Virus record (IMG/VR): IMGVR_UViG_3300035703_000009
Coordinates: 1-64,000 of that record
From: a virus
DNA length: 64,000 nucleotides
Direction: 5' to 3' (one strand)
Below the pieces are notes generated by a model. That model did no database searches. It was not told the origin of the DNA and saw only the letters and a program-made list of their open reading frames with translations. Within the stretch, counting starts at the first letter, position 1, and each line of letters opens with the position of its first letter. Below, piece after piece: positions 35,748 to 59,518 of the stretch. The position numbers and the translations under genes were made by a program.

Positions 35748-36101
35748 ATGGAAAAATTTGAAATTAGACCTTGGGGCTGGTTTGAAGTGTTAACTGAAGA
35801 CGTTAACTATAAAGTTAAAAGATTAGTAGTATGTCCAGGCAAAAGACTCTCATATCAATACCATAATAAAAGAAAAGAACATTGGGTTGTTGTGCAAGGA
35901 GATGGAGTTTTTATCTATGGAAATGATAATTCGACTTTTGAAAAAACTGTGGAAACAGGTAGTTCAATTTTTATTGAAATTGGTGAGTATCATCGTATAC
36001 AAAATACAGGAGAAAGTGATCTGATCATCATTGAAACCCAATTAGGTCAGTGTGATGAAGAAGACATTGTAAGAATAGTTGACGACTTCAATCGAGTCTA
36101 A
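35748..36101 (+). CDS. cupin-domain protein (mannose-6-phosphate isomerase type II C-terminal-like)
   Basis: RPWGWFEVL...KVKRLVVCPGKRLSYQYHNKRKEHWVVVQGDGVF matches the PMI/ManC cupin signature. The start taken is the ATG at 35748, not the upstream in-frame Met of the ORF track. Confidence 0.55.
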   Translation: MEKFEIRPWGWFEVLTEDVNYKVKRLVVCPGKRLSYQYHNKRKEHWVVVQGDGVFIYGNDNSTFEKTVETGSSIFIEIGEYHRIQNTGESDLIIIETQLGQCDEEDIVRIVDDFNRV

Positions 36102-36694
36102 CGATATAGAGTTTCAATGCTCTCATACCTTAAAAAAGAATTAAGGCTTGAATTTGGATTGACTGAAACCATTGAAATCCCTTTACTTTTAAGCAGCTGC
36201 ATATTGAATTTAATCTTTTCAAATCTAGGTAGATACCAATCAGCTCCAACTGAATGGCCGATTTGATTTGAGGAGGAGTTGGATTTTTTCCAAAAATGAC
36301 TGGGGTCTTGCCACTTCAATGAGACTCCAGCAATGTAAAAAATTGAATTTGGAATGTAGTTTGTGTTGAAAAGATCAATTGCGTTTGAAATTGAGTCAGG
36401 AAAGAGTCTCGTATTTTTTCTAGAGTAAACTTTAGTCCATCCTGGTATTTTATTTTTGATGTTCTTTTGTAACCAGTCACTTGAATAAATTGTGGAATTT
36501 CTTTTAAGCTCTTCTAGTTTTTCAGGATAGCGCGAAAGTTCATTTGAAATGATAAGATCAGAAAAAAAGAAATAATTAGGAATAAATTTAAGCCAAATTC
36601 GATTTACACCGAGCGTCACAATGTTTGGATGAATTTTCTCAAAGTCAATTGAATTGATTTGTGGATCGTTACCTAAAACTAAAACTTTAGCCAT
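36098..36694 (-). CDS. Cst-II/GT42-like or Maf(DUF115)-like nonulosonate glycosyltransferase
   Basis: MAKVLVLGNDPQINSIDFEKIHPNIVTLGVNRIWL parallels Cst-II MKKVIIAGNGPSLKEIDYSRLPNDFDVFRCNQFYF. The IGHS motif aligns with the Cst-II catalytic His (YIGHS). Confidence 0.45.
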   Translation of the reverse strand: MAKVLVLGNDPQINSIDFEKIHPNIVTLGVNRIWLKFIPNYFFFSDLIISNELSRYPEKLEELKRNSTIYSSDWLQKNIKNKIPGWTKVYSRKNTRLFPDSISNAIDLFNTNYIPNSIFYIAGVSLKWQDPSHFWKKSNSSSNQIGHSVGADWYLPRFEKIKFNMQLLKSKGISMVSVNPNSSLNSFLRYESIETLYR

Positions 36695-36986
36695 TCAACC
36701 AGTCTCTAGAGTTCATATTTTTATCGTCAATGAAGACATCATATGCTGGCTTACCAAACTTTAGTTCGTGATACTGGACACCCCAAGTCCTAAGTTGTTG
36801 CTCAGTTAATTGTCTCCAATCGATTCCACTTTTAGTGCCCCTGGCAGTCCAGAAAACGATCTGGTGACCTTCCTCGTATAAAGCATTGACTTTTGCGATT
36901 GCCTGAGGAATCGGAGTCGCAGTTTCATACTTTAGGGACTCAGCTAGAGTGCAGATGGTGTCGTCAATGTCGATGTAGTAGGTCAT
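36687..36986 (-). CDS. small HAD-superfamily phosphatase
   Basis: YIDIDDTICTL (DxDxT), FWTARGT and KPAYDVFIDDK motifs. 99 aa. Confidence 0.5.
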   Translation of the reverse strand: MTYYIDIDDTICTLAESLKYETATPIPQAIAKVNALYEEGHQIVFWTARGTKSGIDWRQLTEQQLRTWGVQYHELKFGKPAYDVFIDDKNMNSRDWLNG

Positions 36987-37266
36987 CTATCTTAATGTTG
37001 TTTTCTTCTTTGAACTTTTCCCAAGCAGCCGCATCCATCATGTCTGGAAAGCGTGAGCCTCCATTGCAAGACTCCTTTACATAGATCTTGCCGGGAAAGG
37101 AACATCCGCAATTGATGCAAAATTCATATACGGCACAGTCATTCTTACAGACCTGTGAACGATAAAAGACTTGCTCTTTTTCGTGCTTAGGCAAGAGGTG
37201 GAACTGGTCGCCCAGCATCTTTAGGTTGCCCTCAATGAACTGGTAGATTTTCTTAGGGGTTATCAT
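36964..37266 (-). CDS. Cys-rich hypothetical protein (100 aa)
   Basis: CKNDCAVYEFCINCGCSFPGK cluster. Overlaps its neighbours by a few nt. Confidence 0.35.
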   Translation of the reverse strand: MITPKKIYQFIEGNLKMLGDQFHLLPKHEKEQVFYRSQVCKNDCAVYEFCINCGCSFPGKIYVKESCNGGSRFPDMMDAAAWEKFKEENNIKIDDLLHRH

Positions 37267-38153
37267 TTTCCTCTTAATGTTTTTCTTTTGTCAAGTTCAG
37301 ACTTAAGAACTTCTCTGGGGCCGTAACCTCCTCTAGCGCTTTCGATATCACGAATGCTCTTTATCAGCTTAATGAGTCCTTGGGGCTCGACTGAAGCTAT
37401 TTGATCACTGCCCCAAAGAGAACGATCGACTGTGATGTGACGTTCGATCCAGGTGGCTCCAAGCAAAGTTGCAGCAATGGTCGTAGTAAGTCCAAACTCA
37501 TGACCGGAATACCCCACCGCAAATGACTTTGGAAAGTCTTTACCCTTACTGATGTGGCTCAAGTAGGTGATATAGTCGAGATTAAGTTCATGATTTGGAG
37601 CAGGATAAGTAGAGTTAGTATGAAAAACTACATCAGGTCTACATTCAACTACTGCTAAGTCTATTTCCTCTTGTGTGCTCATACCGGTGGAGATAAGGAG
37701 AAAGTCTGAACAGTCTCGTGCGTATTGAATTAGCTCGAGGTCATGGATTAGGGCCGATGGTATTTTCATCATCACTCCCCACTTGCCATTAGGTAAGAGG
37801 GTCTCAAATTTTCGCGCAAAGTCAACTGACTTTTTGTCCCACACTGAGGTAAACCAACGCATTTTTCGAGCTTCGCAATAGTCATCTATTTCCTTGTACT
37901 GTTCATGGGAAAGCTCAATGTCGAGTTTATATTGAAAGTAAGTGGTCGCCTCTTTGCGCCAGGGCACCCTTTTTGTTTTTGACCTTTCCGCTTGAGGAAC
38001 ACACGATTCAGGATCACGTTTTTGAAACTTTACATAATCAACTCCGGAAACTGCCGCAATATCAATAAGTTTTTTTACATTATTGATGAATTCCTTCGTA
38101 GAGGAACCATATGCATAATTTATGCCTATTTCTGCAATTATCGTGGTTTTCAT
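37263..38153 (-). CDS. neuB: NeuB-family nonulosonic acid (sialic/legionaminic/pseudaminic acid) synthase
   Basis: IIAEIGINYAYGS, VKFQ, ISTGMST, VGYSGHEFG and IERHITVD match NeuB motifs IIAEIGCNHNG / ISTGMAT / VGYSDHSLG / IEKHFTLD. The start is set at the internal Met, which gives an ATGA overlap with the upstream gene. The ORF-track 5' extension reaches 38225. Confidence 0.75.
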   Translation of the reverse strand: MKTTIIAEIGINYAYGSSTKEFINNVKKLIDIAAVSGVDYVKFQKRDPESCVPQAERSKTKRVPWRKEATTYFQYKLDIELSHEQYKEIDDYCEARKMRWFTSVWDKKSVDFARKFETLLPNGKWGVMMKIPSALIHDLELIQYARDCSDFLLISTGMSTQEEIDLAVVECRPDVVFHTNSTYPAPNHELNLDYITYLSHISKGKDFPKSFAVGYSGHEFGLTTTIAATLLGATWIERHITVDRSLWGSDQIASVEPQGLIKLIKSIRDIESARGGYGPREVLKSELDKRKTLRGK

Positions 38154-39184
38154 GAGTTTACTAGAGAGTTTATCCAAGAAAAAGTTTTTTTCATTCCATC
38201 TACTAAAGGCTGGGAGACTTTCCAACCCATTTTTTCTTCATAAAGTTGGTTGTCTGAATTTCTACCTTTGACTCCAATTGGACACTTGAATCCGTACTTT
38301 TTCTTGAATTCTTCGCCTTCTATATTTTCAATAGAGATATTTTTATTTGAGATTAAGATCGCCATTTCAGCAAGTTGATTAATTGTAACCATCTCTTCAG
38401 AACCGATGTTGACAGGTCCTAAGAATCCATCTTGTCTCATGAATCTAAGAACTGCTTCAACACAATCATCAATGTACAAAAAAGAGCGAGTCTGCATACC
38501 GTCTCCCCAAACTTCTATGATACCTCCGCTCTGGGTTTCTGCTACTTTGCGGCACATTGCAGCGGGAGCCTTTTCCTTACCTCCTTTCCAAGTTCCATAG
38601 GGGCCAAATATGTTATGGAACCTGGCAATTCGCACGTCTAGCCCGTAGTTTCTATGAAAAGCTAAATAAAGTCGCTCACTAAAAAGTTTTTCCCAACCGT
38701 ATTCTGAGTCAGGATTTGCTGGATATGCTGATGACTCTTCACAATTTGGGTTATTTGGATCGAGCTGATTGTGCTCTGGGTACATGCACGCAGAAGAGCT
38801 ATAGAAAATCTTCTTTACTGATTTTTTGACGGCTTCATGTGCAACATTTAAGTTTATTAGAGATGAGTTATGCATTACATTAGCATCGTTATTACCTGTA
38901 AAAATATAACCAGCTCCTCCCATGTCAGCAGCAAGTTGATAAACTTCATCGAAAGATTTTTCTCTGTCCCCTTCAAAAGTTTGATTAGGAGATAACATGA
39001 CACAACTTACAAACTTAGGGTCTCTAAGATCACCTAAAATAAACTCATCACAAAAATCATCTTTATCAAAGTACTCATGAACTTTAATGTCAACTGCTCT
39101 GACCCAAAAGCCTTCTTCCTTTAATTTTTTAGCCAGGTGGCCTCCTATGAAGCCTCCTCCACCAAGTACTAGTGCCTTTTTCAT
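38150..39184 (-). CDS. NAD-dependent epimerase/dehydratase (GDP-L-fucose synthase-like extended SDR)
   Basis: LVLGGGGFIGGHL Rossmann motif. YSSSACMYP and VWGDGMQTRSFLYIDD resemble Fcl LGSSCIYP / VWGSGTPMREFLHVDD. Confidence 0.55.
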   Translation of the reverse strand: MKKALVLGGGGFIGGHLAKKLKEEGFWVRAVDIKVHEYFDKDDFCDEFILGDLRDPKFVSCVMLSPNQTFEGDREKSFDEVYQLAADMGGAGYIFTGNNDANVMHNSSLINLNVAHEAVKKSVKKIFYSSSACMYPEHNQLDPNNPNCEESSAYPANPDSEYGWEKLFSERLYLAFHRNYGLDVRIARFHNIFGPYGTWKGGKEKAPAAMCRKVAETQSGGIIEVWGDGMQTRSFLYIDDCVEAVLRFMRQDGFLGPVNIGSEEMVTINQLAEMAILISNKNISIENIEGEEFKKKYGFKCPIGVKGRNSDNQLYEEKMGWKVSQPLVDGMKKTFSWINSLVNS

Positions 39185-39921
39185 AATTTTCTTTTATTTT
39201 TTTCAAAAATTTTGTCTCCTGGAAAGGAGGCTGTATTTATGAATCCTTTTTGAGTTAAGAAAGCCATCATTTCATCTAGTGAATTTCCTGCCTGAACCGT
39301 ATGCTTTTGGTCCCACTCAATTATAAGAGTAAGGTTATTTGCTTTTTCTAAAAAATCGCTCATACCTTTTAATACATTCATCTCAAACCCTTGAACATCA
39401 ATTTTTATTAACCCAATATCGTAACTTGGATTTTCAAGTAAAAACGTGTCTAATTTTTTACAGACAACTTGCTCAGTAATGTAATTTTTAGAATTCATAT
39501 TAGAGATCGCAACCTCTTTGTTAAAGGAAGCATTGTCTGAGCAATAAGGAATGAATATTTCTTGAGTAGTATCAGAATCAAATAGAGCAAAGTTTAGAAT
39601 TTGCATGTTTTTACAAGAGTTTGCACTTTTACTCTGCTCTAACAATGAAACATTCATACTAAGCGGCTCAACTGATAGTACGGAATAACCATATTTTTCA
39701 GCAGGTATTGAAAACATTCCGCAATTTGCACCAACATCTAACACAGACCTAGATTTATCCATTTTTCTTACAAGATTAAGCATCATAGTGTAATCCTTCA
39801 TCTCATTGAGGTTTGTTCTAGCTTTTATTTTATAGTCAGTGACAAAATAGTCAAAATTAAAGATTACGTATTCAAAATTAGCGTTTTTAAAAATAAATCT
39901 TTCAGGTTTAGTAGAAATCAT
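39181..39921 (-). CDS. FkbM-family methyltransferase
   Basis: VLDVGANCGMFSIPAEK...VLSVEP matches the FkbM DVGANxG...EP signature. Confidence 0.5.
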   Translation of the reverse strand: MISTKPERFIFKNANFEYVIFNFDYFVTDYKIKARTNLNEMKDYTMMLNLVRKMDKSRSVLDVGANCGMFSIPAEKYGYSVLSVEPLSMNVSLLEQSKSANSCKNMQILNFALFDSDTTQEIFIPYCSDNASFNKEVAISNMNSKNYITEQVVCKKLDTFLLENPSYDIGLIKIDVQGFEMNVLKGMSDFLEKANNLTLIIEWDQKHTVQAGNSLDEMMAFLTQKGFINTASFPGDKIFEKNKRKL

Positions 39922-39932
39922 GAGCGTTTAGA

Positions 39933-40715
39933 TTATTTGAAGTAAGAATCATAATTAAAATCAGATAACTTATTTGAATAGTAATGAGGTCCTATTATTT
40001 TTAAGAATGCGTTTTGGTCCTTGATTCCACCGTCAGTGTCGCTAGCATTAGTCAACTGATTAGCCATACCGGGAGTAAATGAATAGCAGTTTAACGAAGG
40101 CTCAATTAGTATGAATGAGTGATCTATTGCTCGAGATCGGTGCACACACGCGTCCAGTAACTCTACTATTTTAGGTATTGAACTTGGATTAATTAAATAT
40201 GAGTGGCCGCAAAAAGAACCATATACTCGGTGTATGTACTTGATTCCAGTTAACTCATAATCCCCTCCTTTATTCCAACGACTGGGATCATTGTTTAGAT
40301 GATAAAAAGAAGAAAGGAAAAATATGTCCCAATCTAGGTTAAATTTTTCTTCAATGTACTTAAATCTTTCGTTAAAATCTTCGCAGAGAATGACATCATC
40401 TTCAAATATTCCAAGTATCTTATCACTGCTAGTATCGTATTCTTTAATTAGAGTGTAGTGGGAGCGATAGCATTTTTTCTGTCCTTCAGAAAAGGCTGAA
40501 CTAAATGGTATGCTGCAGCCAGATAAGTCTTCGTACGCTCTAAATTTTTTAGCATCGATGTTATGCTTTTTTAATTCAGAATTAACGTGGGCAAGTCTGT
40601 CTACTCTTCTGTCTAAATTTATGAAATAGAAGTCAATGTTCTTTCTTTCTATTTTTAAGAAGGTTTTTGTGTGAGCCATATACTTATGTATTATTTTTGT
40701 CTTATTTTTATCCAT
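39933..40715 (-). CDS. GT25-family glycosyltransferase
   Basis: FYFINLDRRVDRLAHV N-terminal motif and FEDDVIL, typical of GT25. Confidence 0.5.
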   Translation of the reverse strand: MDKNKTKIIHKYMAHTKTFLKIERKNIDFYFINLDRRVDRLAHVNSELKKHNIDAKKFRAYEDLSGCSIPFSSAFSEGQKKCYRSHYTLIKEYDTSSDKILGIFEDDVILCEDFNERFKYIEEKFNLDWDIFFLSSFYHLNNDPSRWNKGGDYELTGIKYIHRVYGSFCGHSYLINPSSIPKIVELLDACVHRSRAIDHSFILIEPSLNCYSFTPGMANQLTNASDTDGGIKDQNAFLKIIGPHYYSNKLSDFNYDSYFK

Positions 40716-41530
40716 CTTTCTGGAGTCAAAGCATTAGTATCAAAGCTTTGATAGTCTGGTCCAAACCACTCATCTGGATAAGGACAGTAAACAAGCTTAT
40801 CCGTAGATTTTGATAAATATGCAGCCCACCATGAAAAAGTACTGTTTGCAATAATGAAGTGGTCACACAAAGACTGAGCTATGAAGTCACTAATATAATC
40901 ATCGCTATAGTCAAAATAAGTAATAGGTTTTTGATATTTTTCAAATTTTCCAAATATGAATTCTTTAGTATCTTCATTATCAGTAAAGATGCATATTTCA
41001 TCGATGCTTTTTTTAGATAAAATGTCTTCTATACTTCTTTGATAGTATTCTAAAGTAAGAACTGGGTGTCTATGCTCGACACCTTTATGCCCTCCTCCAA
41101 ATTTACGATCATACTGATCACCCCAGCGTATGTGAATCGAAAGTTTCTTTGAGTTCTGATTCATTTTACTATTAACCTTTTCTATAATAGTTGGGTCAAA
41201 GACCAAATACTCAAGTACTTTTTTTTCATAATCATCAAAAAACAAAGAGGACTGAAAATATCCTACTATTTCTACTAATTTATCACTAGTTGGAATATTG
41301 TGGATTCCAAATTTAGATTCCTTATGAGTCAGTGAAATATTTGACTTTATTTTGACAGAGGAACGTGTAGGTAGATTTGGAAAAAGCTTTGCGTGCTCCC
41401 ACTCAGATGGAACAAAAAAGCTACTGTTGTTCTTAATTGCTTGACCAATAATAGTCGCAACTCTAAACAATTGATTGCCAAGGCGTCCATGACGATGGTC
41501 TAATATTTGCAAAGTAGTGAAACCTTTCAT
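40691..41530 (-). CDS. GT11-like alpha-1,2-fucosyltransferase
   Basis: HGRLGNQLF (GGLGNQMFQ-like) and LSIHIRWGDQY (HxRRGDY-like) motifs. Confidence 0.5.
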   Translation of the reverse strand: MKGFTTLQILDHRHGRLGNQLFRVATIIGQAIKNNSSFFVPSEWEHAKLFPNLPTRSSVKIKSNISLTHKESKFGIHNIPTSDKLVEIVGYFQSSLFFDDYEKKVLEYLVFDPTIIEKVNSKMNQNSKKLSIHIRWGDQYDRKFGGGHKGVEHRHPVLTLEYYQRSIEDILSKKSIDEICIFTDNEDTKEFIFGKFEKYQKPITYFDYSDDYISDFIAQSLCDHFIIANSTFSWWAAYLSKSTDKLVYCPYPDEWFGPDYQSFDTNALTPERWIKIRQK

Positions 41531-41546
41531 ATTTAAAAATTGTTTT

Positions 41547-42464
41547 TTATGAGTTTTGTACTACACTAGACTCAATGAGTTTAGACGGAAGCATTATTTT
41601 CGGTTCACTGAAACTTGCACTTTTAAAAAATTTATCATTATAATTGATAGTGTTTCGAGTAAGTGTGTGATGAAAGATTCCATCGTAATAGCTTTGGCTA
41701 TGATATACACTAGCTACATAGCTAAGAGAACTCTTTGACATTATGAATGCATCTGATTTGATTATTCTATCTAGCGTTTTTACAGGGTGCTCATCTAAAT
41801 GAAAAAATACTTTTCCATGCGCATTAAGTTCATTAAAATATTGAAAATCTAAAATGTCACCTTGAGAGTAAATATGAAATTGAATATTTTTATTAGTGGG
41901 CATGATTTCTTTAACGAAGTCAATGGAGCCGTTAGGAATATTGGGGTAATAATATCTACGCCATTCGGAGAAATCAGTGTCCTCGTCAGTAGCTCGTCTA
42001 ACATGAATAGAAATAATGAAATCTGAATTTTCTTCTCTTGGGTATTTTTTAATTAACTCTTCTTGAATATTGTTTAATAGAAAAATGTTATGGTCAGTTA
42101 GTGTCTTTAGATCTGCCCAGTGAAGATTAACTATTGATTTTTCTAAAGAGGAAGGATTATATATTAAAGTGTCTAACAATTCATATACACTCAGCTCTAC
42201 TACAGGAAGCGAATCAGACTCAGTAATCGAGTCTCTTAATAAAAAATCTCGAGTATATTCAAAAAAATGAAGATCCCATTCTTCTTGAGAAAAATTAAAT
42301 TTTTGAATGTGTCCAACGTTTTTCATTGGAGTTAATAAAAAATCAACTCCATAGTGTTTAGCCAATGCATAGCCGCCTAATTGAAGTTGAAAGGCAGAAC
42401 CAAAACCTTCGTTGTGTCCAGGAAGGTATAAATTTGAACAATCTATCTCACATTTTATTATCAT
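41547..42464 (-). CDS. putative glycosyltransferase (GT11-like?)
   Basis: GFGSAFQLQLGGYA and SIHVRRATDED weakly resemble GT11 motifs. Confidence 0.3.
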   Translation of the reverse strand: MIIKCEIDCSNLYLPGHNEGFGSAFQLQLGGYALAKHYGVDFLLTPMKNVGHIQKFNFSQEEWDLHFFEYTRDFLLRDSITESDSLPVVELSVYELLDTLIYNPSSLEKSIVNLHWADLKTLTDHNIFLLNNIQEELIKKYPREENSDFIISIHVRRATDEDTDFSEWRRYYYPNIPNGSIDFVKEIMPTNKNIQFHIYSQGDILDFQYFNELNAHGKVFFHLDEHPVKTLDRIIKSDAFIMSKSSLSYVASVYHSQSYYDGIFHHTLTRNTINYNDKFFKSASFSEPKIMLPSKLIESSVVQNS

Positions 42465-43171
42465 TACATTCCTCCAGTAAAATTTGAAAAATCTTTATTT
42501 AAAATTATATTATTCTGAAAACGAAGATTTCCATCAAAAGTTTGATAAAAAGTAAAATTTTGAGTTTTCATAAAATCTAATATTTCTTCTCTAGAAGAAG
42601 CATTTTCATACTGATATCGACAATCGTCTTCCATGTCCAAAAATTGAACTCTACGCAAATGTGGACCTAAACTCTTTGTAATATCTAAATCTTTTCCTTG
42701 AGCATCTATTTTTATTAATTCGATGTGTTCATATACTAGTGAGTCCAATAACATCTTAAGAGAAAAGGTTTCCACGTCAATTTCGCAATCTATTTCACAC
42801 TCTGGAATATTTTGCAATTTTGGAGTCAATAGACTAGAACAGCCAACATTTCCACTAAGAAGGTAAAATTTACTTTCACGTAAGGTGTCAACATTATCAC
42901 AAGCACCAATTATATGATAATAGTTTTCTTTTTGTTCATTTTCTTTAAATACATCTAATATGTTCCAGGTTTTTCCATCCCACTCATTTATTCCATCCAA
43001 ACAATAAGGATTAGGTTCGATTCCAATTACAAAAATATTTTTGACATTAGAGAACCACTGACGTGTGACTGGAGCGCTTATTGACGTGCCTATGTCAAAT
43101 CGCAATTTTTTATTTTTTAACTTTGAATTTAGTAATTTAAAATCACAATTTGAAAATTTACTAAAATTCAT
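42464..43171 (-). CDS. FkbM-like methyltransferase (divergent)
   Basis: RFDIGTSISAPV...VIGIEPNP pattern. Confidence 0.35.
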   Translation of the reverse strand: MNFSKFSNCDFKLLNSKLKNKKLRFDIGTSISAPVTRQWFSNVKNIFVIGIEPNPYCLDGINEWDGKTWNILDVFKENEQKENYYHIIGACDNVDTLRESKFYLLSGNVGCSSLLTPKLQNIPECEIDCEIDVETFSLKMLLDSLVYEHIELIKIDAQGKDLDITKSLGPHLRRVQFLDMEDDCRYQYENASSREEILDFMKTQNFTFYQTFDGNLRFQNNIILNKDFSNFTGGM

Positions 43172-43809
43172 TTTGTAAAAATATAATTTTCTCCATCAAA
43201 AACTTCTTTTTCAAAATATCCTATTGACTCCAAGTAATTTTTAGCATCTTGAATAGTATGACCTCGCTTTTCAAGAGCGTGATTGAGCTCTATGATAATT
43301 AAAGGAGACTGCTCTCTTAAAAACTTTTCACCGCCTAAGAGCACTTCATAATCATAGGAGTCAACATCAATTTTTATTAAGTCTATTTTTTTTCCAATTT
43401 GTTCAACAAAAGAATTTAGAGTTATGAAATCATGTTCGCGATCATCAGTTATACCTTGAGACCAAACTTTAAAAATTTTATCTAGTTTAAGGCCATCTTC
43501 TTTTCCAAGAGGTCTATTAATTAGAATTACGTTCTCTTTACAGTCATTGTATGCCAAGTTTTTCTCTAACATATCGACAATATCAGTAGGTTCAAATGCA
43601 TAAACTGTTCCTTTTGATGCAAGTTTAGAAAAAGGAATTGTGTACATTCCTATGTTTGCACCTGCGTCTATGATATTAAATTCAGGCTTTACGTAAGAAT
43701 GTATAAACTTTTTAGTGGAAATCTCAGCAGAAGAAAACCAGCCGGCGTCACATTCGTTATATGATGGAAAAGAATATGAAATTTCTGAAGTATATTGAAT
43801 TGAGATCAT
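43168..43809 (-). CDS. FkbM-family methyltransferase
   Basis: NIIDAGANIGMYTIP...VYAFEPT signature. Confidence 0.5.
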   Translation of the reverse strand: MISIQYTSEISYSFPSYNECDAGWFSSAEISTKKFIHSYVKPEFNIIDAGANIGMYTIPFSKLASKGTVYAFEPTDIVDMLEKNLAYNDCKENVILINRPLGKEDGLKLDKIFKVWSQGITDDREHDFITLNSFVEQIGKKIDLIKIDVDSYDYEVLLGGEKFLREQSPLIIIELNHALEKRGHTIQDAKNYLESIGYFEKEVFDGENYIFTK

Positions 43810-44366
43810 AGTTGTGGGGTTATGTAAGCTACACCGCTATTTGTGAGGCTAGACGTGCTAAAGGTTACAGTATAATTAAGTTTTCCATAAATTTCATCTA
43901 GCGAGTTGTTCACGTAGCTCAAATTAAGAGGTTGGCCTCGATAGATATCGTATCCGAACTTAGGATTTTCATTTTCATCAGGAACAAAAAAATCATGAAT
44001 AGCAATAACTGGGATTATTTGCTTTTTTTTAATCTCAAAAAGTTCATCTAAAAGAGGCCAGTACTCTTCCCAATGCGCATCTAAAAAGAAAAAAGTATTT
44101 GAAGTTAAGGATTTGCTGCGTATAATTTCTGGGCTATTTCCTAAAATTAGCTCACAATTTGTAATCTCTTTTAAAGTCTGTTCAGCTATCTTGTAGTTTT
44201 GCAAATCATTTTCTACTGTAAAAACCTTGGAAAAATACGGCGCAACTATCCTGGCAGATTCTCCAAGATAAGATCCAGTTTCAAAAAAAACATCTATTTT
44301 GTATTTTTTGGATAAGTTAATAGTCCACTCTAATAGTTGAGGATCTGAATACGCAGGTCTAGTCAT
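43806..44366 (-). CDS. TylF/MycF-like class I SAM-dependent O-methyltransferase
   Basis: FFETGSYLGESARIVA resembles ETGVFRGGS. A D..H motif (FLDAHW) lies downstream. Confidence 0.4.
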   Translation of the reverse strand: MTRPAYSDPQLLEWTINLSKKYKIDVFFETGSYLGESARIVAPYFSKVFTVENDLQNYKIAEQTLKEITNCELILGNSPEIIRSKSLTSNTFFFLDAHWEEYWPLLDELFEIKKKQIIPVIAIHDFFVPDENENPKFGYDIYRGQPLNLSYVNNSLDEIYGKLNYTVTFSTSSLTNSGVAYITPQL

Positions 44367-44376
44367 CGTAGTTCAT

Positions 44377-45138
44377 TTATTTTTTAAACACTGGGATGTT
44401 TTGCATCTTGTGTGAATTTTGAGTGTTAAAACTTCGGTAAATCCCTATTACTTCTTTTTCTCTAGCTGAAAGCTTGTCCAGATCAGCGGCAGTAAAATAA
44501 GGATTTTTTTCTAAAAACTGCATAGCCCATTCAAGTTCAGCATAGGAAGCACCTATTTGATCTTCATCGCTTCGTCCGTCTTCCCAGAGTCCATCAGTTG
44601 GTTTTGCTTTAATAATTGATCTAGATATTCCCAAATCTTCCCCTAGCTCCCATACCTCAGTTTTTAATAAATCAGCAATAGGGCTAATATCTACTCCTCC
44701 ATCTCCATATTTTGTAAAGAAACCGACTCCAAAGTCTTCTACTTTGTTGCCTGTTCCAACAACCAGCCCATGATTCTCAGTAGCGATTTGATAGAGAGTC
44801 ATCATTCTGAGTCTTGACCTAGAGTTAGCCAACGCAAGTTTGTTATCTTTTGTAAACAACGACTTAAAATTTTCAAAAACTTGGGTAAGATTCAACTCAA
44901 TTGATTCAACATTTGAGAAGTTGCTCTTTAACCAAGAAATGTGTTCATCTGCTCTAGTTAACTGATCTGGCGCTTGATGAATAGGCATGCTTACAACAAT
45001 GGTTTTTATTCCGGTCATTGCACAAAGAGTAGAAACAACGGCAGAGTCTATTCCTCCAGAAACTCCTATAATAAATGTTTTAAGATTAGCCGATTTTAAA
45101 TAATCATTCAACCACTTTGAAATTTGTTGTTGTAACAT
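44377..45138 (-). CDS. nadE: NH3-dependent NAD+ synthetase
   Basis: FIIGVSGGIDSAV PP-loop. GFFTKYGDGGVDISPI is nearly identical to E. coli NadE GFFTKYGDGGTDINPL. 253 aa. Confidence 0.8.
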   Translation of the reverse strand: MLQQQISKWLNDYLKSANLKTFIIGVSGGIDSAVVSTLCAMTGIKTIVVSMPIHQAPDQLTRADEHISWLKSNFSNVESIELNLTQVFENFKSLFTKDNKLALANSRSRLRMMTLYQIATENHGLVVGTGNKVEDFGVGFFTKYGDGGVDISPIADLLKTEVWELGEDLGISRSIIKAKPTDGLWEDGRSDEDQIGASYAELEWAMQFLEKNPYFTAADLDKLSAREKEVIGIYRSFNTQNSHKMQNIPVFKK

Positions 45139-49052: not shown

Positions 49053-49055
49053 TAT

Positions 49056-50513: not shown

Positions 50514-51151
50514 TTTACTTGATCTAAGTCTTTTTGAGTGTCGACGTCAACTACATCTTCGATCGGGTAGAACACGGTAGACGGGCCGTACATATTCTTA
50601 TTTAATTTATAGAGAGCAGAAGCTCTAAAGATGCACATGTAGTGACTGATCTCAAAGCACTTTGGATAGTCTTGGCGTCGGTATAGATCGTGTTCAAGTA
50701 AAGGCTTGCCGAAAACGCCGTCTGCTCCATGCTCCTGTAACATGAGATAAGGTGAGACTTTAAGTTCCTTCTTACATAGCATAGAATCAGCAAGACCTAA
50801 GTCAGCAAACTGACAGTAATATTCATAAGCCGCGTAAATCTCTTTCCAGGTCCTCTCTGGATAGGTTAAGTAGAGCATTATTACTTCAGCAGACATGGGA
50901 AGCCCGACGTTTTTTACGGCGTGTTGCATCACGTCCCGAATGTTAGCAGAGTCGTCTGATAGTTCAGAAGGACGATCGATTGCACAACACCCATGCTTAA
51001 TGGCTAACTGAAATATCTCAGGGTCGTCGGTCGTCACAAAAACACGTCTACGAAGAGACTCTGGAATCGAGTCTATTGTCGCTTTAAAAAGCTTACGGTT
51101 CTTAAAGGGTAGGCCCTTGGAACCCAGTCTGGCTGGAATGATGATGTTCAT
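50501..51151 (-). CDS. neuA: CMP-nonulosonic acid synthetase (NeuA-like acylneuraminate cytidylyltransferase)
   Basis: MNIIIPARLGSKGLPFKNRKLF matches NeuA/KdsB IIPARGGSKGIxxKN. Confidence 0.75.
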   Translation of the reverse strand: MNIIIPARLGSKGLPFKNRKLFKATIDSIPESLRRRVFVTTDDPEIFQLAIKHGCCAIDRPSELSDDSANIRDVMQHAVKNVGLPMSAEVIMLYLTYPERTWKEIYAAYEYYCQFADLGLADSMLCKKELKVSPYLMLQEHGADGVFGKPLLEHDLYRRQDYPKCFEISHYMCIFRASALYKLNKNMYGPSTVFYPIEDVVDVDTQKDLDQVKWIR

Positions 51152-51765
51152 AGTTGATCGAACTCTTTGAGAGTTATTTTTGGAATCTGTAGGTTACTAG
51201 ACTCGCTCAAGTTGTAAAAAGATACTCCGCGCCTTTCAAGCTCAGCTCTAAGCTTTTGATAAGCAAGATTGACCTTAGTCAGGTGCTTAGTCTTAACGAC
51301 ACTGTGCGCTCCATCCTTGGGATTATAAAAGTGCCCGTCTGTAAAGTCGACACCAATAACGCCGATGTGTTTTGCTCCCAATCGATACGCTAGGCAGACC
51401 GCACAATACGGCGAATTCAAATAGTGATCGAGATGGTTCTTTTTATCTAGACAAGTCAGCTCTCGAGTACCTAACTCAAAATAGATTAGGCTAGTGTGTC
51501 GCCAGCCCCTGGCGCAAGTAAAGAGGTGTTTTGACTTTGACTGTACTACTAGGTCCTTGCGTTTACCGACAAACCGTAATGGGCTGTCTGTGACTAGTAA
51601 ATAGGTCGGAGTAAAAAGGGCCGGCACGTCGTTGACTCCGATCGTGGTGTATCGTTCCGCATGTTCAGCAAAGCCCAGCAGAGAAGTGCCACAGCCACAG
51701 ACTATGATCTTTTCACCTGAATGCGGACGGTCAATGTCCTTAAGAGATTTGATTAAGCTAGACAC
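51148..51765 (-). CDS. hypothetical protein, possible Maf/DUF115-like glycosyltransferase
   Basis: KIIVCGCGTSL resembles the xIxGNGPSL motif of Maf/Cst-II-like enzymes. Weak. Confidence 0.25.
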   Translation of the reverse strand: MSSLIKSLKDIDRPHSGEKIIVCGCGTSLLGFAEHAERYTTIGVNDVPALFTPTYLLVTDSPLRFVGKRKDLVVQSKSKHLFTCARGWRHTSLIYFELGTRELTCLDKKNHLDHYLNSPYCAVCLAYRLGAKHIGVIGVDFTDGHFYNPKDGAHSVVKTKHLTKVNLAYQKLRAELERRGVSFYNLSESSNLQIPKITLKEFDQL

Positions 51766-51830
51766 TTAGATAAATTATTTTAAAACCTAGTCTTCAATTT
51801 TTATACAAGATCAGGAACATAAGTTTTAAA

Positions 51831-52867: not shown

Positions 52868-52876
52868 TTTAAGGCT

Positions 52877-54856: not shown

Positions 54857-54883
54857 TCAAAAACTAAAAAAATCAACTCAAAA

Positions 54884-56554
54884 ATGGCACGTACTAAAAT
54901 TTTCAGACGTTCAAGTGATAAGAACTTGGCCGCAACCTGGAAGCCAGTCCTTGAGAGCTATGGTGCAAATGTTGAAAAGACACCTTGGTTAGCAGAATAT
55001 GCTCACAACCACGGAATCTTCGACAACACTACTCCATTGTTCGAACAGGCTACTGCTCCCGGTCTATTCTTCCAACAACCAGCCTCTTTAGGCGGCTATG
55101 CTGGACAGATCTCCGCACCAACTAACTCGATGACTCCGTTCTCGGGTGGTGCAAAAAATGCATACGGTAACGTAGGCGACACCGTAGGTTCTGGTGACAA
55201 ATTTCCTTCATTGCTTCCTGTAGCTATCCAAGTTGCAGCTAAGACAATTGGATTTGACCTTGTTCCAGTTATCCCAATGGATTCTCCAGTAGGATTCCTT
55301 CCTTATCTTGATTACTTGTACACAGGTGGTCGTACAGATAAAGCATTTGATCCTTACATGGTAAAAGTTGTAGGAATCAACGCGAATGACTTCCCAGCTG
55401 GTCCAGCGTATGGTGATTCAATCACTGTATCTGGTAGTGGAGCTGGCGATTTCGATCTAGAATTCGTAGGCTACTCTCGTGTTGACGGTAACTTGATCAT
55501 CAAAATAGTTGCAGATAATGGCTCAAACATCATCGCTACTTCTCTTGAAGGTAACACTTTGACGATTGGAGTTGATACTTCAGCTACAGTTGATGCTGGT
55601 GCAGTACAATTAGTTTCTGCTCTTGAAAACCACATCTCTGGTTTCACTTCAGTATCTGATGATGACTATGCAAATTCTGGAAACTTTGTTGGTCCTTACC
55701 TTCCAACTACCGGAGCAGTTCCTGGTTCAATGAAGCGTGAAGCTTCTGAGCTTTCTAAGTTCCGTCAAATGGGCTTAAGAATGTTTACCAAATTCGTTGA
55801 GGCTGAAACTGATCAAGTTGCTATCTCTGCAACTGTTGAGCAGATCCAAGACCTTAACCGCGTTTGGAACTATGACGTTATCTCAATGCTTGAGAACGTT
55901 GCAGTTAACGACATCGCTCAATCAATCAACAAGCGTCTTGTAGACCGCGTGTTCACCCTTGCTGACGTTCACTCTAATGAAATCGATCTAGTTGAAGGTA
56001 CTGGAATCACTAACCTAGACTTAACTGCAGGTTCTGGTGGTTTCGAAAACATCTCAACTTTACAACGTAGAGTTGTTACCAAGATCCTTGAACTTGCTAA
56101 CTTGATCTACCACAGAGGTCGTTTCGGAGCAGCTTCTTACCTTGTTACCACAGGTCGTGTTGCTTCTGCTCTTGCAGACGTAGCTGGTTACTCAATCGCT
56201 CAAGTTCCATCTGACATGTCAACTACTGCAGGTCAATTGTACCCAGCAGGTAAAGTGTATGGCGTTCAGGTATATGTTGATCCTAACTTAAGTTGGGGAG
56301 ATACGCGTATCGTTCTTGGACGTAAGGGTGCTGACGAAGAACCAGGTGTTAAATTCATGCCTTACATCATGGCGGAATCACTTCAAACTATCGCTGAAGG
56401 AACAATGTCTCCTAAGATCGGTATGAAGTCGCGTTACGCTATCACCGAGGCTGGATGGCATCCTGAGACTCAGTATGTTAGCATGAACCTTCAAGGTCAA
56501 GACCTTGGTGTTCTAACTGGTAGCATCGCTCCACAGCCAAGCGGCACGCTATAA
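54884..56554 (+). CDS. gp23: major capsid protein (T4 gp23-like)
   Basis: ATWKPVLESYGANVEK resembles gp23 NKWKPLLEGEGLPE. AAKTIGFDLVPVIPMDSPVG resembles IPNLIAFDICGVQPMNSPTG. C-terminal GMKSRYAI resembles GFKTRYGI. 556 aa. Confidence 0.7.
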   Translation: MARTKIFRRSSDKNLAATWKPVLESYGANVEKTPWLAEYAHNHGIFDNTTPLFEQATAPGLFFQQPASLGGYAGQISAPTNSMTPFSGGAKNAYGNVGDTVGSGDKFPSLLPVAIQVAAKTIGFDLVPVIPMDSPVGFLPYLDYLYTGGRTDKAFDPYMVKVVGINANDFPAGPAYGDSITVSGSGAGDFDLEFVGYSRVDGNLIIKIVADNGSNIIATSLEGNTLTIGVDTSATVDAGAVQLVSALENHISGFTSVSDDDYANSGNFVGPYLPTTGAVPGSMKREASELSKFRQMGLRMFTKFVEAETDQVAISATVEQIQDLNRVWNYDVISMLENVAVNDIAQSINKRLVDRVFTLADVHSNEIDLVEGTGITNLDLTAGSGGFENISTLQRRVVTKILELANLIYHRGRFGAASYLVTTGRVASALADVAGYSIAQVPSDMSTTAGQLYPAGKVYGVQVYVDPNLSWGDTRIVLGRKGADEEPGVKFMPYIMAESLQTIAEGTMSPKIGMKSRYAITEAGWHPETQYVSMNLQGQDLGVLTGSIAPQPSGTL

Positions 56555-56587
56555 GCGAACCTTTTAGCTAAACTAGCTATATCAAAA

Positions 56588-56618
56588 AAGAGGACCCGTA
56601 AGTCCTCTTTTTTTGTTT
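56588..56618 (+). terminator. rho-independent terminator after the capsid gene
   Basis: Hairpin aagaggac-ccgtaa-gtcctctt followed by tttttgtttt. Confidence 0.65.
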
Positions 56619-56624
56619 TAGCGG

Positions 56625-56640
56625 GATAAATAATAAAAAC
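56625..56640 (+). promoter_or_regulatory. T4-late-like promoter motif GATAAATAATAAAAAC
   Basis: Exact 14-mer, 11 nt upstream of the ATG at 56652. Confidence 0.55.
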
Positions 56641-56651
56641 TTACAGATCAC

Positions 56652-57020: not shown

Positions 57021-57029
57021 TAAGAAAAG

Positions 57030-57278
57030 ATGTTTGCAATACTCATACAATATGGAGCGCTTGGTGTCCTGATCCTTGGGTTGGGTGCAGCACTCTGGTA
57101 TCTACTTAAAAGGCAGATCGAAAACGAAGAAAAACTAAAGGCTAGACTCGATGCAGTCGAGCAAGACCTAGGCGATTATCTTAGAGCTGATCAGGGAAAG
57201 ATGCTGCAGGTGATTGAAAACAACACTAAGGCGCTAAAGGAACTAAGAGAAATAATCGTCAAATCCAATGAAGAATAA
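57030..57278 (+). CDS. small membrane protein with coiled coil
   Basis: N-terminal hydrophobic helix ALGVLILGLGAALWYLL. 82 aa. Confidence 0.45.
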   Translation: MFAILIQYGALGVLILGLGAALWYLLKRQIENEEKLKARLDAVEQDLGDYLRADQGKMLQVIENNTKALKELREIIVKSNEE

Positions 57279-57729
57279 AGTACTACTTCCGATCGTCTTT
57301 TTTGCGACCATTGCTGTTGCCATCGGGTACATAGCGGTCAGCGGTAAGAATCACGTAGATGCGGTCCAAGAGTCGGCTGTTCTAATTGAGCAAAGGGCTC
57401 AATTGAAAGACTCAGTCGTTAGCCTAGAATGCGTTAAGAAAGAGTCGATCAAAAAGCTAAAGGAGGCAGACTCAGTTCTCACTTCCCAAAATGAGCTGAT
57501 CACCAGCCAACAGAAAAAGATCGTCTCGCTCGACAAGGAGGCGAAGGTGGCAAAGGCCCAACCCAAGTCAGTGATGGCTATTGAGCCCAAGATAATCTAT
57601 GTGCACGACACGGTGTTCGTCACCGAAAAGAAAAACTTTTGGGGCAGGACCAAAAAGACAGTCGTCTCAGTGCAGGCCATCGACAGCGTGTTCAGCGAAG
57701 AGCAGGTCGATAGCTTAGAGACCAAATAA
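57268..57729 (+). CDS. membrane-anchored protein (153 aa)
   Basis: N-terminal TM helix VLLPIVFFATIAVAIGYIAV. Confidence 0.45.
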   Translation: MKNKVLLPIVFFATIAVAIGYIAVSGKNHVDAVQESAVLIEQRAQLKDSVVSLECVKKESIKKLKEADSVLTSQNELITSQQKKIVSLDKEAKVAKAQPKSVMAIEPKIIYVHDTVFVTEKKNFWGRTKKTVVSVQAIDSVFSEEQVDSLETK

Positions 57730-57745
57730 AATAATTAACTAGCCA

Positions 57746-59518
57746 ATGTACTCATCTGGAATCGAAATACCTAAAGTCCAATTTTCTCTGATCGCTTTTA
57801 GCCAGATCGAGCCCGGAAGCTTTTTCTTGGGCTTTGACCTGGACAATGCAGGTACGCTATCAAAAATAGACAATACTGGAACCATTACTGTGATCGAGGG
57901 AGCCGGCGGAGGCAGCTCAATTATGATTGAGGACAGTGGGTTAGGCTCAACTGTTCGTATCAATAACTGTAATTCAGCAAGCAGTTGCTCTTCAACAGTC
58001 AGTGGCGGTTATTCAAACACTGCATCGGGTAATTATGCCACAGTTAGTGGCGGTTATTCAAACACTGCATCGGGTAATTATGCCACAGTTAGTGGCGGTG
58101 AGAGCAATACCGCATCGGTTTATCATTCCACAGTTAGTGGCGGTTTTGGCAACACGACATCGGGTGGTGCTTCCACCATTGGCGGCGGGTGTAGCAACAC
58201 GGCATCGGGTTATATTTCCACAGTTAGTGGCGGTAGCCAAAATACGGCATCGGGTTATAATTCCACAGTTAGTGGCGGTATATGCAACACGTCATCGAGT
58301 AGTTCTTCCACAGTCGGCGGTGGTGCGAGCAACACGGCATCGGGTTATTGTTTTTCCACAGTCAGTGGCGGTGTGGTTAACACCGCATCGGGTGCTGCTT
58401 CCACAGTGGGTGGCGGTAGCCAAAATACGGCATCTGGTGCTGTTTCTACAGTCGGTGGCGGATGTAACAACACGGCATCGGGTTGTTCTTCCACAGTGGG
58501 TGGCGGTAGACAAAACACGGCATCGGGTTGTAATTCAACAGTCAGTGGCGGTTGCGGTAATACTATTAATGCTTTTACAACATGTTTAGGTTATAGCGTA
58601 GTTGGAAATACCATAGGCGGTGGTCAACAAAATACAATAAATTCAAATAGCGCTTATAATGCAAATGCTGGTGGTGTTACAATAGCAGGCGGTTTTAACA
58701 ATACAACATGTTCAGGTTCTTATGGGTTTAATACCATAGGTGGTGGTCGTAGCAACACGTCATCTGGTGATTATTCCACAGTAAGCGGCGGAAATGCCAA
58801 CATGGCATCGGGTTATTTTTCCACATTAAGTGGCGGTTTTAGCAACACGGCATCGAATTCTTCTTCCACAGTCGGTGGCGGTAGCCAAAATACGGCATCT
58901 GGTGCTGTTTCAACAGTCGGTGGCGGATGTAGAAACACGGCATCAGGTTATTGTTCAACAGTCGGTGGCGGTTTTTGCAATAATGCATCGGGTGCTCGCT
59001 CTACTATTGGAGGAGGGTGTCGCAACACGGCATCGTGTACTTATTCTACAGTCGGTGGCGGTAGGAGCAACACGGCATCGGGTGCTTATTCCACAGTCGG
59101 TGGCGGTTTTTGCAACACGACATCGGGTTCTATTTCCACAGTTGGTGGCGGATATTGCAACACGGCGTCGAGTAATTCTTCCACAGTGGGTGGCGGATGT
59201 TGCAACACAGCATCTGGTGCTTGTTCCACAGTAAGCGGCGGGGTTAACAACACGGTATCGGGTGGTTATTCCACAGTCGGTGGCGGATGTAGAAACACGG
59301 CATCGGGTTGTAGAAGTTTTGTTGCAGGTGGTCAATGTAATAACACAAACAGTTGCAATGACGCTATGATAGTGGGCAGCTGTATCACGGCTGATCGCGC
59401 ATGTGCTACATTTGTCAATAACCTATCAATCAAGAGCATACCTACTTCGAGCGCGGGCTTACCTAGCGGCTCAGTCTGGCGGTGCACAGCTGACAATACT
59501 TTGCGTATCATTGCATAA
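57746..59518 (+). CDS. fibre/decoration-like protein with about 30 tandem 15-aa Gly/Ser/Thr/Asn/Cys-rich repeats
   Basis: 590 aa. After a 75-aa N-terminal domain, the repeat unit is TVSGGYSNTASGNYA (consensus S/GGxxNTASGxxSTV) through residue 530. Distinct C-terminal domain. Confidence 0.6.
   Translation: MYSSGIEIPKVQFSLIAFSQIEPGSFFLGFDLDNAGTLSKIDNTGTITVIEGAGGGSSIMIEDSGLGSTVRINNCNSASSCSSTVSGGYSNTASGNYATVSGGYSNTASGNYATVSGGESNTASVYHSTVSGGFGNTTSGGASTIGGGCSNTASGYISTVSGGSQNTASGYNSTVSGGICNTSSSSSSTVGGGASNTASGYCFSTVSGGVVNTASGAASTVGGGSQNTASGAVSTVGGGCNNTASGCSSTVGGGRQNTASGCNSTVSGGCGNTINAFTTCLGYSVVGNTIGGGQQNTINSNSAYNANAGGVTIAGGFNNTTCSGSYGFNTIGGGRSNTSSGDYSTVSGGNANMASGYFSTLSGGFSNTASNSSSTVGGGSQNTASGAVSTVGGGCRNTASGYCSTVGGGFCNNASGARSTIGGGCRNTASCTYSTVGGGRSNTASGAYSTVGGGFCNTTSGSISTVGGGYCNTASSNSSTVGGGCCNTASGACSTVSGGVNNTVSGGYSTVGGGCRNTASGCRSFVAGGQCNNTNSCNDAMIVGSCITADRACATFVNNLSIKSIPTSSAGLPSGSVWRCTADNTLRIIA
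57990..59330 (+). repeat. 45-nt tandem repeat array (about 30 copies) within the fibre-like gene
   Basis: Unit acagttagtggcggttattcaaacactgcatcgggtaattatgcc and close variants. High nucleotide identity between copies. Confidence 0.8.

Follow-up and report, generated by a model that had tools for sequence, protein, structure and literature searches.

A phage-encoded nonulosonate glycosylation locus, with a conserved frame around a strain-variable cassette, in a large myovirus-like phage

We describe a glycosylation locus in a window of 64,000 nucleotides from the viral record IMGVR_UViG_3300035703_000009; by the window we mean this whole stretch of DNA, and the island within it was compared with the related loci L001-L042. 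The region at 35748-51765 is a real phage-encoded nonulosonate glycosylation locus, and the genome that carries it is large and myovirus-like. We tentatively favour the view that virion (particle) proteins, as the most likely acceptor, are glycosylated in the cytoplasm with a strain-variable glycan that contains a nonulosonate.

The body of the locus is an island (36098-51765) of densely packed minus-strand genes, with a guanine-plus-cytosine (GC) content of 0.31-0.36 against about 0.44 elsewhere in the window. Genes for a prohead protease, DnaJ, a baseplate hub and sheath-like proteins flank it. The gene order runs from the baseplate hub through a small Maf-fold protein that we call A, a HAD-type phosphatase, a Cys-rich protein, a NeuB-family synthase, a variable cassette, a cytidine monophosphate (CMP)-sugar synthetase and a second Maf-fold protein, B, to DnaJ, the protease and the major capsid protein (MCP). 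This frame order is kept in the sister phage (L001/L005), in three distant contigs of 170-258 kb (L007-L009) and in 32 of 34 IMG/VR loci, and the frame is conserved across more than 30 related phage contigs at 45-60% protein identity. A and B are linked to NeuB and the CMP-synthetase throughout the phage loci, with B adjoining the CMP-synthetase in 32 of the 34 IMG/VR loci; the distance from B to A is 15.7 kb in the window and ranges from 6.2 to more than 10.6 kb in the relatives. Base composition divides the genes in the same region: the HAD, Cys-rich, NeuB, CMP-synthetase and B genes have a backbone-like GC content of 0.42-0.46, and A, a cupin gene beside it and the cassette lie at 0.29-0.39. 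Neither intrinsic terminators (9 in the island, 8.5 in shuffles) nor sigma-70 promoters (51 and 53.7) were in excess.

A CMP-nonulosonate pathway had been put forward in a preliminary description of the window, and its parts are indeed present: a NeuB-family synthase, a CMP-sugar synthetase and a mini-HAD phosphatase. The synthase (37263-38153, minus strand; to 38225 from a TTG in the list of open reading frames) has 296 residues, as it does in the relatives, and matches PF03102 at 186.9 bits; its metal-binding His motifs, GYSGHEFG (SxH) and ERH (ExH), align with those of PDB entries 6ncs and 8h2c. No match to the C-terminal SAF domain was found in it, and it falls short of the equivalogs that name the sugar, scoring 161 bits against a cut-off of 399 for TIGR03569 (NeuB) and 114 against 340 for TIGR03586 (PseI). 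The capless HAD-type phosphatase (36687-36986, minus strand) has 99 residues and weak matches to PF25109 and NF046079; all four HAD motifs (DxD, T, K, DD) are present by inspection, and its gene adjoins A and NeuB in every locus that reaches that far. It is presumably a nonulosonate-9-phosphate phosphatase. The CMP-nonulosonate synthetase, a cytidylyltransferase (50501-51151, minus strand), matches PF02348 at 32.8 bits against 22.6 and the PseF-like model TIGR03584 at 63 bits over its full length (model positions 3-218); it misses the equivalog cut-offs, and its best PDB matches are the CMP-N-acetylneuraminic acid (CMP-Neu5Ac) synthetases 6ifd and 1eyr.

A NeuB without SAF domain, a capless mini-HAD and a cytidylyltransferase together suggest a phosphorylated route, from a sugar-6-phosphate and phosphoenolpyruvate (PEP) to a nonulosonate-9-phosphate, the free nonulosonate and its CMP form. 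This route occurs in animals and in the synthesis of 2-keto-3-deoxynononic acid (KDN) by Bacteroides. The resemblance to the KDN route of Bacteroides thetaiotaomicron and the animal Neu5Ac-9-phosphate route lies in the set of synthase, small capless HAD and cytidylyltransferase, and in the predicted host phylum, Bacteroidota; in contrast to those systems, the phage synthase has no SAF domain and misses the NeuB and PseI cut-offs, and the HAD protein has 99 residues and weak family matches. No NeuC, Pse or Leg upstream enzymes are encoded in the island, and our guess is that the sugar is Neu5Ac- or KDN-like. KDN itself had been considered as the product on the strength of the HAD protein, the Bacteroidota host and the cupin; it was set aside, the cupin being absent from the relatives. 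The cupin, of the mannose-6-phosphate isomerase type (35748-36101, plus strand; 117 residues from the ATG; PF01050, E 5e-26; C-terminal part of TIGR01479; GC 0.33), gave no tblastn match in any relative's locus. It came in together with the A allele, and it could equally serve a GDP-fucose/GT11 branch.

The Cys-rich protein (36964-37266, minus strand; 100 residues) has no family match and is 59-97% identical in the relatives, always encoded between the HAD and NeuB genes. Its six Cys include a CxxxC and a CxxCxC cluster, and it may bind metal or act as a helper of the synthase.

The putative CMP-ulosonate-dependent transferases are A (36098-36694, minus strand), a single Maf/Cst/MptE-fold domain of 198 residues, and B (51148-51765, minus strand), a single Maf/MptE-fold domain of 205 residues that starts with GTG and is 98% identical in the sister phage. 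Both reading frames are present as first described. They had also been called Maf/Cst-II-like, a likeness that holds for the fold and not at the level of sequence: neither single sequences nor 40-member profiles gave a significant match in Pfam, NCBIfam or PDB, and no Cst chain of GT42 appeared at E<=10 for A or B by either kind of query. Against PF01973 (MptE-like/DUF115; gathering score 34.6 bits) A has no match and B scores 13.1 bits, with sub-threshold matches in 37 of 40 members of the B family (best E 1.3e-5). AlphaFold2 models from 40-member alignments reached mean predicted local distance difference test (pLDDT) values of 94.1 for A and 93.7 for B. Maf is the top structural match of both models and gives the longest alignments (166 and 182 residues), followed by Campylobacter jejuni Cst-I, the archaeal MptE kinase and mammalian GT29 enzymes; by predicted fold, A and B thus belong with the Maf catalytic domain and with GT42 (Cst-I/Cst-II). 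By hhalign (E 4.5e-4 over 166 columns) the two are remote paralogues, and their metagenomic families comprise at least 159 and at least 197 clusters, respectively. H133 of A is conserved in at least 90% of members (PSHFWK), and H145 and H154 of B are invariant (GVDFTDGHFYN); any of these may be the counterpart of the catalytic His of GT42. A starts with a GNxP loop, and a conserved His follows its central strand, presumably as in Cst-II.

On the strength of these models, A and B would be transferases of an activated nonulosonate. Maf O-links CMP-activated Neu5Ac or 3-deoxy-D-manno-octulosonate (Kdo) to Ser/Thr in the cytoplasm, and Maf is the only enzyme family known to transfer CMP-ulosonic acids to protein Ser/Thr in that compartment (PMC11339370). 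The likeness to Maf (5mu5) extends beyond the best structural match to the coupling with NeuB-type and CMP-synthetase genes and to a soluble, cytoplasmic nature; the acceptors of Maf are Ser/Thr of proteins destined for a filament or particle outside the cell. The differences are as plain: Maf has about 600 residues, with N- and C-terminal domains on either side of the catalytic one, A and B stay below the Pfam threshold, and no flagellin is encoded in the phage or bacterial loci.

The bacterial loci in question (L044-L123) come from a scan of one genome per species, which returned 80 homologues of B, full length and 38-46% identical, in Acidobacteriota, Proteobacteria and others. In most of them, judged by the span of the reading frame, the B-like domain forms the N-terminal part of a protein with about 800 to more than 2,000 residues (for example L092 1909-10493, L093 2262-11072 and L082 1478-10709). 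The five fusions that were scanned join it to a methyltransferase (L091, L045), a second MptE-like domain (L092), Glyco_trans_1_2 (L093), and a KpsC/S-like domain with GT4 (L082). An AAA ATPase of the type seen in extracellular contractile injection systems (eCIS) lies 4-7 kb from the B homologue in 34 of the 80 loci, a DUF4157 'eCIS core' toxin protein is a neighbour in 23, and one homologue stands beside a tail-sheath gene. Often the B-like gene directly follows the eCIS-type AAA ATPase and DUF4157/Ntox15 toxin genes. The B family thus tracks contractile-tail particles in two independent settings, phage and bacterial, a pattern suggestive of glycan-building enzymes, or glycosyltransferase payloads, encoded by the contractile injection system loci themselves. 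The tail-sheath gene just mentioned, in L091 (5772-7604, minus strand), encodes a Paraburkholderia protein of the phage-tail-sheath family with an extensin-like (SPPVA)n insertion of about 50 residues, which would be an obvious substrate for O-glycosylation.

Between NeuB and the CMP-synthetase lies the variable cassette, the first part of which (38150-48195, minus strand; GC 0.29-0.39) was annotated with Pfam and NCBIfam. It encodes an Fcl-like epimerase/reductase, a nucleotide diphosphate (NDP)-sugar dehydrogenase, a NadE-like protein and two unknowns, together with three FkbM methyltransferases, two GT25, one GT11 and two GT2 enzymes. The NadE-like gene (44377-45138, minus strand) overlaps that of the NDP-sugar 6-dehydrogenase (45104-46204, minus strand); its product could amidate the carboxylate of a uronic or ulosonic acid instead of making NAD. 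By tblastn, the next protein (48192-49052, minus strand; 286 residues) has homologues in 31 of the 80 bacterial proteins, in each case as the domain located behind the B-like one, and one of these counterparts is a Glyco_trans_1_2 domain (PF13524, residues 423-569 of the L093 protein). Homologues also occur in L007, L017, L022, L023, L029 and L031, and the protein is probably a glycosyltransferase of the GT-B type. The relatives' cassettes are built from other parts: that of L008 (2337-7043) has an asparagine-synthase-type amidotransferase, a PIG-L deacetylase, a sulfotransferase and a hexapeptide acyltransferase, and that of L001 (11271-17592) has GT8, RgpF, WbsX, GT4 and a 2-oxoglutarate-Fe(II) oxygenase. 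This indicates very diverse glycan decorations.

The last cassette gene (49056-50513, minus strand) encodes a two-domain protein of 485 residues and provides a third candidate transferase besides A and B. Its C-terminal domain (about residues 296-485) is of the GT29 sialyltransferase type, with a PF00777 score of 35.4 bits against a cut-off of 23, and aligns to sialyl motif L of ST3Gal-I (2wnb, E 3.6e-6); S-like (LPTSGL...LFGF) and VS-like (HNYLLE) motifs were seen by eye, outside any hidden Markov model alignment. The domain has 402 metagenomic cluster representatives at E<=1e-3 in an exhaustive search, where a k-mer search found 2, and its position at the C-terminus of proteins of about 450-490 residues is common among these 402 relatives. 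The N-terminal part, about 290 residues (49647-50513, minus strand), has no family match; a GT8-like assignment from tblastn was unsupported by direct comparison with a relative's GT8 and by a Pfam scan. In its true family match and its motif L the GT29-type domain resembles known sialyltransferases, and the S- and VS-like motifs may be further points of likeness. A and B are not GT42 by sequence. Known GT29 enzymes sit in the Golgi as type II membrane proteins and have conserved disulfides; in contrast, the phage protein has no hydrophobic segment (maximum 19-residue Kyte-Doolittle value 1.11) and no type II membrane anchor, and its soluble GT29 domain is fused to an N-terminal one.

With this third candidate in view, A and/or B could instead be (pyro)phosphotransferases like MptE or thiamine pyrophosphokinase, supplying for example a phosphorylated sugar, with the GT29-like protein and the other glycosyltransferases doing the transfer. 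The only Pfam signal of B, PF01973, is named after MptE, and A directly adjoins the HAD and NeuB genes. We nonetheless consider this highly improbable: Maf is the top match of both proteins and aligns over the greatest length, two sialyltransferase families match them structurally as well, and in bacteria the B-like domains occur in fusions with GT-B and KpsC/S-like transferases and with methyltransferases. Moreover, tblastn with the window's GT29-like protein, made without a search of the other cassette genes for sialyltransferase domains, returned no match in the minimal islands L009 and L027.

Comparison with the sister phage shows how the locus changes at the level of strains. The flanks are 99.6% identical in DNA; in contrast, 38154-50522 has no DNA similarity by blastn to the sister's cassette, NeuB falls to about 75% nucleotide identity from about 37330 onward, and A is 59% identical in protein beside HAD and Cys-rich genes at 97-99%. 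Against L005 the result is a sharp recombination mosaic, in which 36690-37330, with the HAD and Cys-rich genes, was retained at about 100% identity and 35745-36690 and 37330-50522 were replaced. The A allele (with the inserted cupin), most of NeuB and the cassette thus change jointly, and B and the CMP-synthetase stay with the backbone. Since A, NeuB and the cassette are replaced together, A—and perhaps the exact sugar—appears to be matched to the cassette's glycan; B would have a constant partner.

None of the 22 island proteins has a transmembrane helix. The island therefore encodes no flippase, polymerase, ligase, initiating phosphoglycosyltransferase or exporter, and with all 22 proteins soluble the system should work in the cytoplasm. 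In the mechanism we propose, the NeuB-like synthase would condense PEP with a hexose(amine) phosphate, the mini-HAD would take off the 9-phosphate and the cytidylyltransferase would form the CMP-sugar, which A and B—and, in the window phage, the GT29-type domain too—would transfer. The GT2, GT11, GT25, GT-B-like, FkbM and nucleotide-sugar enzymes of the cassette would build the rest of a strain-specific, methylated glycan. The acceptor would be one or more virion proteins, modified before or during assembly in analogy to flagellin modified by Maf and to the capsid and tail-tube glycans of mycobacteriophages; a repeat fibre would not be required and is probably not the main target. Gene content, folds, synteny, mosaicism and solubility are what the analysis establishes; the phosphorylated route, the identity of the donor, the transferase activity and the acceptor are what we infer.

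Four observations lead us to favour a particle protein as acceptor: the locus keeps its place between the tail and head modules in phages that share 45-60% protein identity, no transmembrane segment occurs in any of its proteins, Maf is the best structural relative of A and B, and the B family is found in bacterial contractile injection system loci. A near-consensus late promoter inside the window's cassette also counts on this side. Several points weigh against it. The GT2, GT11 and GT25 enzymes (RgpF, WbsX and GT8 in relatives) and the swapping of cassettes are typical of O-antigen and capsule loci, whose enzymes work on lipid-linked glycans; the substrates sialylated by Cst-type and GT29 enzymes are glycans and not proteins; and A and B are without the extra domains thought to bind flagellin in Maf proteins. 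No NeuB, CMP-synthetase, A, HAD or flagellin gene lies within 8 kb of the 80 bacterial B homologues. Because the bacterial loci are without nonulosonate genes, the case for B as a nonulosonate transferase is drawn from phage synteny alone. CMP-Kdo is, to our knowledge, always present in Gram-negative cells, so an ulosonate donor is possible in those loci. The bacterial B-like proteins occupy the position of eCIS payload genes and could be effectors. The timing of expression, to which we return below, belongs on the same side.

A broader version would extend virion glycosylation to contractile-tail particles in general, the virions of this lineage and bacterial eCIS alike being decorated in the cytoplasm with ulosonic-acid glycans by the B family, and cassette recombination giving strain-level virion 'glycotypes'. 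We regard this as doubtful; such glycotypes of the phage lineage would be analogous to bacterial serotypes.

Several of the points against a virion acceptor fit a remodelling of the host surface, which we consider somewhat unlikely. In such a scheme the soluble enzymes would modify undecaprenyl-linked O-antigen, capsule or O-glycosylation intermediates of the host at the inner membrane face, and host flippase and ligase would carry the nonulosonate-capped glycan out, for instance excluding superinfection or the adsorption of progeny to debris. GT25, GT11 and GT2, like RgpF, WbsX and GT8 in the relatives, are typical of lipopolysaccharide (LPS) and lipooligosaccharide (LOS) synthesis; the Cst-I and GT29 structural relatives sialylate glycans, those of LOS and of glycoproteins; in the manner of bacterial serotype loci, cassette and A allele have been exchanged between phages that are otherwise nearly identical; and the low GC content of cassette and A suggests a foreign origin. 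Even so, the module is a conserved core locus between structural modules and not a transient accessory island, it encodes no membrane, flippase or ligase component, and its bacterial B homologues lie in contractile injection system loci, not in LPS or capsule loci. Similar blocks of strain-variable, low-GC glycosyltransferase, methyltransferase and nucleotide-sugar genes are found in the LPS/glycosyltransferase islands of aquatic phages (cyanomyoviruses) and in O-antigen and capsule loci; the block described here differs in its lineage-conserved frame, its fixed site and the absence of Wzx, Wzy, an ABC transporter and an initiating enzyme.

The timing of expression bears on both readings. A late motif, ATAAATAATAAAA, occurs in eight exact copies in the window, each 8-13 nt before a start codon (10176, 15386 on the minus strand, 18110, 22587 on the minus strand, 23788, 29876, 52852 and 56626), and drives two proteins with Thr/Pro-rich segments, the protease and an operon that ends in the fibre gene. 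The preliminary description had seen no exact copy inside the island, which is correct; there is, however, one copy with a single mismatch to the 13-mer, GATAAATAATCAAAAA (46214-46235, minus strand), and 12 nt separate it from the start codon of the dehydrogenase gene downstream (ATG at 46204). Among the position weight matrix sites of the 64-kb window it ranks ninth, a match that our own rough estimate expects by chance about 0.02 times in the 15.7-kb island, and the distal half, from 45104 to A, could be transcribed late from it. In the 36 related loci no canonical late motif lies on the island strand, so co-expression with the late genes is not indicated there, the copy at 46214-46235 being the exception; the island strand is also opposite to both flanking late operons. 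These observations, by which the island may be expressed at an early or middle stage, speak against a virion acceptor, and the lack of late motifs in the relatives speaks for host-surface remodelling. The late-promoter-like motif, in the form (G/A)ATAAATAATAAAAA, recurs 8-13 nt before start codons across L001-L042, and it precedes the protease and DUF5856 genes throughout the lineage.

In the divergent region between B and DnaJ (51766-51830) lies the element TTGTATAA (51801-51808, minus strand), which occurs once in the window. Of 37 phage loci, 33 have it at 27-49 nt upstream of B, preceded by CTAAAC at a distance of about 15 nt. We considered it as the island's own promoter; as TACAAT is part of its reverse complement and the DnaJ start is 22 nt away from the element, it may act in either direction. 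A similar element, AAGTACAATA, precedes the genes at 16537-17973 and 60198-60482 (both minus strand), and the two may represent a non-late class of promoter.

The acceptor first proposed was the protein at 57746-59518 (plus strand), a 590-residue beta-roll repeat fibre that resembles the UspA1/YadA head (PF18792, 93.1 bits against 27; PF21300, 30.4 against 30). Its description as a Ser/Thr-rich repeat fibre stands: it has 25 canonical 15-residue units of the form STV(S/G)GGxxNTASGxx in two blocks, plus degenerate units (period 45 in Tandem Repeats Finder), with 5.3 Ser/Thr per unit, of which S1, T2, T10 and S12 are near-invariant. It also contains 28 Cys (4.7%), mostly at the variable repeat positions 7, 8, 14 and 15, and regular T-x-S ladders. 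Its role as the acceptor fares worse. That the fibre is the main acceptor, O-sialylated on its Thr/Ser ladders by A and/or B, has in its favour that it is expressed late, in an operon (DUF5856, an 82-residue protein, a 153-residue protein, the fibre) behind the exact motif at 56626-56638 (plus strand), and that each 15-residue coil offers four near-invariant Ser/Thr. By analogy with the xxNxVxG beta-roll of grass ice-binding proteins (PF21300), outward-facing and hence exposed positions would be taken by T2, T10, S12 and any Ser at position 4. Cytoplasmic hyper-glycosylation is known, moreover, for the beta-helical adhesins AIDA-I and TibA.

The distribution of the fibre tells against this role. 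Among the relatives, the fibre gene and the two small genes before it are found only in the window phage and its sister, at about 98% identity (L001/L002), and the module is lineage-wide. In the eight distant relatives whose reading frames were listed, other genes follow the DUF5856 gene, or the MCP gene where DUF5856 was undetected, and topoisomerase-like genes, encoded on the opposite strand, are among them in most of the eight. Within 10 kb of the module, more than 30 related loci have no Ser/Thr-rich repeat reading frame. A lineage-wide set of enzymes would be expected to act on a lineage-wide acceptor, and the fibre is therefore at best an additional substrate. Between the sisters, cassette and A allele differ completely, whereas the fibre, at about 96% nucleotide identity over its first 800 bases, differs mainly in repeat number (590 against 813-828 residues); for this reason a co-variation of fibre and cassette was rejected. 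The near-invariant Ser/Thr are also needed structurally by the beta-roll. As main acceptor the fibre thus seems quite improbable to us.

Two other late proteins are alternative acceptor candidates, as had been proposed, and the exact ATAAATAATAAAA 8-12 nt before the start and the Thr/Pro-rich segment were found for each. One (10197-10562, plus strand; 121 residues) has a mucin-like segment rich in Thr, Pro, Glu and Ala at about residues 17-65, and the other (23813-24382, plus strand; 189 residues) has a C-terminal tail rich in Pro, Glu, Ala, Thr and Lys. The C-terminus of the MCP may be mentioned here as well: in most relatives examined it has a conserved VLTG(G/S)xAP followed by a short variable tail, which is QPSGTL in the window (56500-56554) and a longer Pro/Ser/Thr-rich SGPATPSPVAPIVAP in L030 (5213-6916, minus strand); in L035 the protein ends in VLTGSAAIA. 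These tails are reminiscent of the C-terminal glycosylation sites on mycobacteriophage capsids.

The gp23-type MCP of the window (54884-56554) has its closest counterparts in an uncultured 462-kb phage (38%) and in the Lak megaphages of Prevotella (32%), and the near-identical and related contigs, of up to 170-258 kb, come from freshwater metagenomes. The phages of this lineage look like the 'moraphages', which they resemble in size, habitat, DnaJ gene, sister relation to Lak phages and 'core' glycosyltransferases. Moraphages have Bacteroidota as predicted hosts, and the paper on them lists four core glycosyltransferase groups without further analysis, raising DNA glucosylation as their possible role (PMC12619734). 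This proposal, together with a promoter class in the island that differs from that of the late genes, is what favours placing the glycan elsewhere, on the bases of phage DNA or in a product that is free or secreted. Beside the island, however, we saw no base-hypermodification genes, and its sixteen cassette genes, methyltransferases among them, point to a complex oligosaccharide; we know of no case of a nonulosonate on DNA and find such a destination barely credible.

Among the 50,697 deposited phage genomes we found no homologue of B and only two with a NeuB-like gene related to that of the window, both uncultured. A full-text literature search returned no paper on phage-encoded nonulosonate synthesis or on phage virions that bear nonulosonates. 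The nearest precedents for virion glycosylation lie in other viruses. PMC12619734 cites glycans on mycobacteriophage capsids and tail tubes. The mycobacteriophage system, reportedly treated by Freeman et al. in 2023, and the self-glycosylation of giant viruses, such as chlorovirus and mimivirus, resemble the case proposed here in their soluble virus-encoded glycosyltransferases and methyltransferases, in the virion-gene context and in glycans made in the cytoplasm on structural proteins. We know of no report of a nonulosonate pathway, a Maf-fold enzyme or a GT29 domain in those phage systems; the present island differs further in being known from its genes alone and in its combination of a conserved frame with a variable cassette.

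If virions of this lineage of abundant freshwater jumbo phages carry nonulosonate glycans of phage origin, virion glycosylation would reach beyond actinobacteriophages and giant viruses, with a new class of sugar and a new enzyme fold, and the 'core' glycosyltransferases of the lineage would be explained. A and B would then offer minimal Maf-like transferases of about 200 residues for glyco-engineering. The frame-plus-cassette architecture amounts to strain-level glycan diversification in a virus, and the link to contractile injection systems suggests a wider, unrecognised glycosylation of tail-like nanomachines. Even if the acceptor should prove to be the host surface, a lytic jumbo phage with a conserved nonulosonate pathway would be rare.

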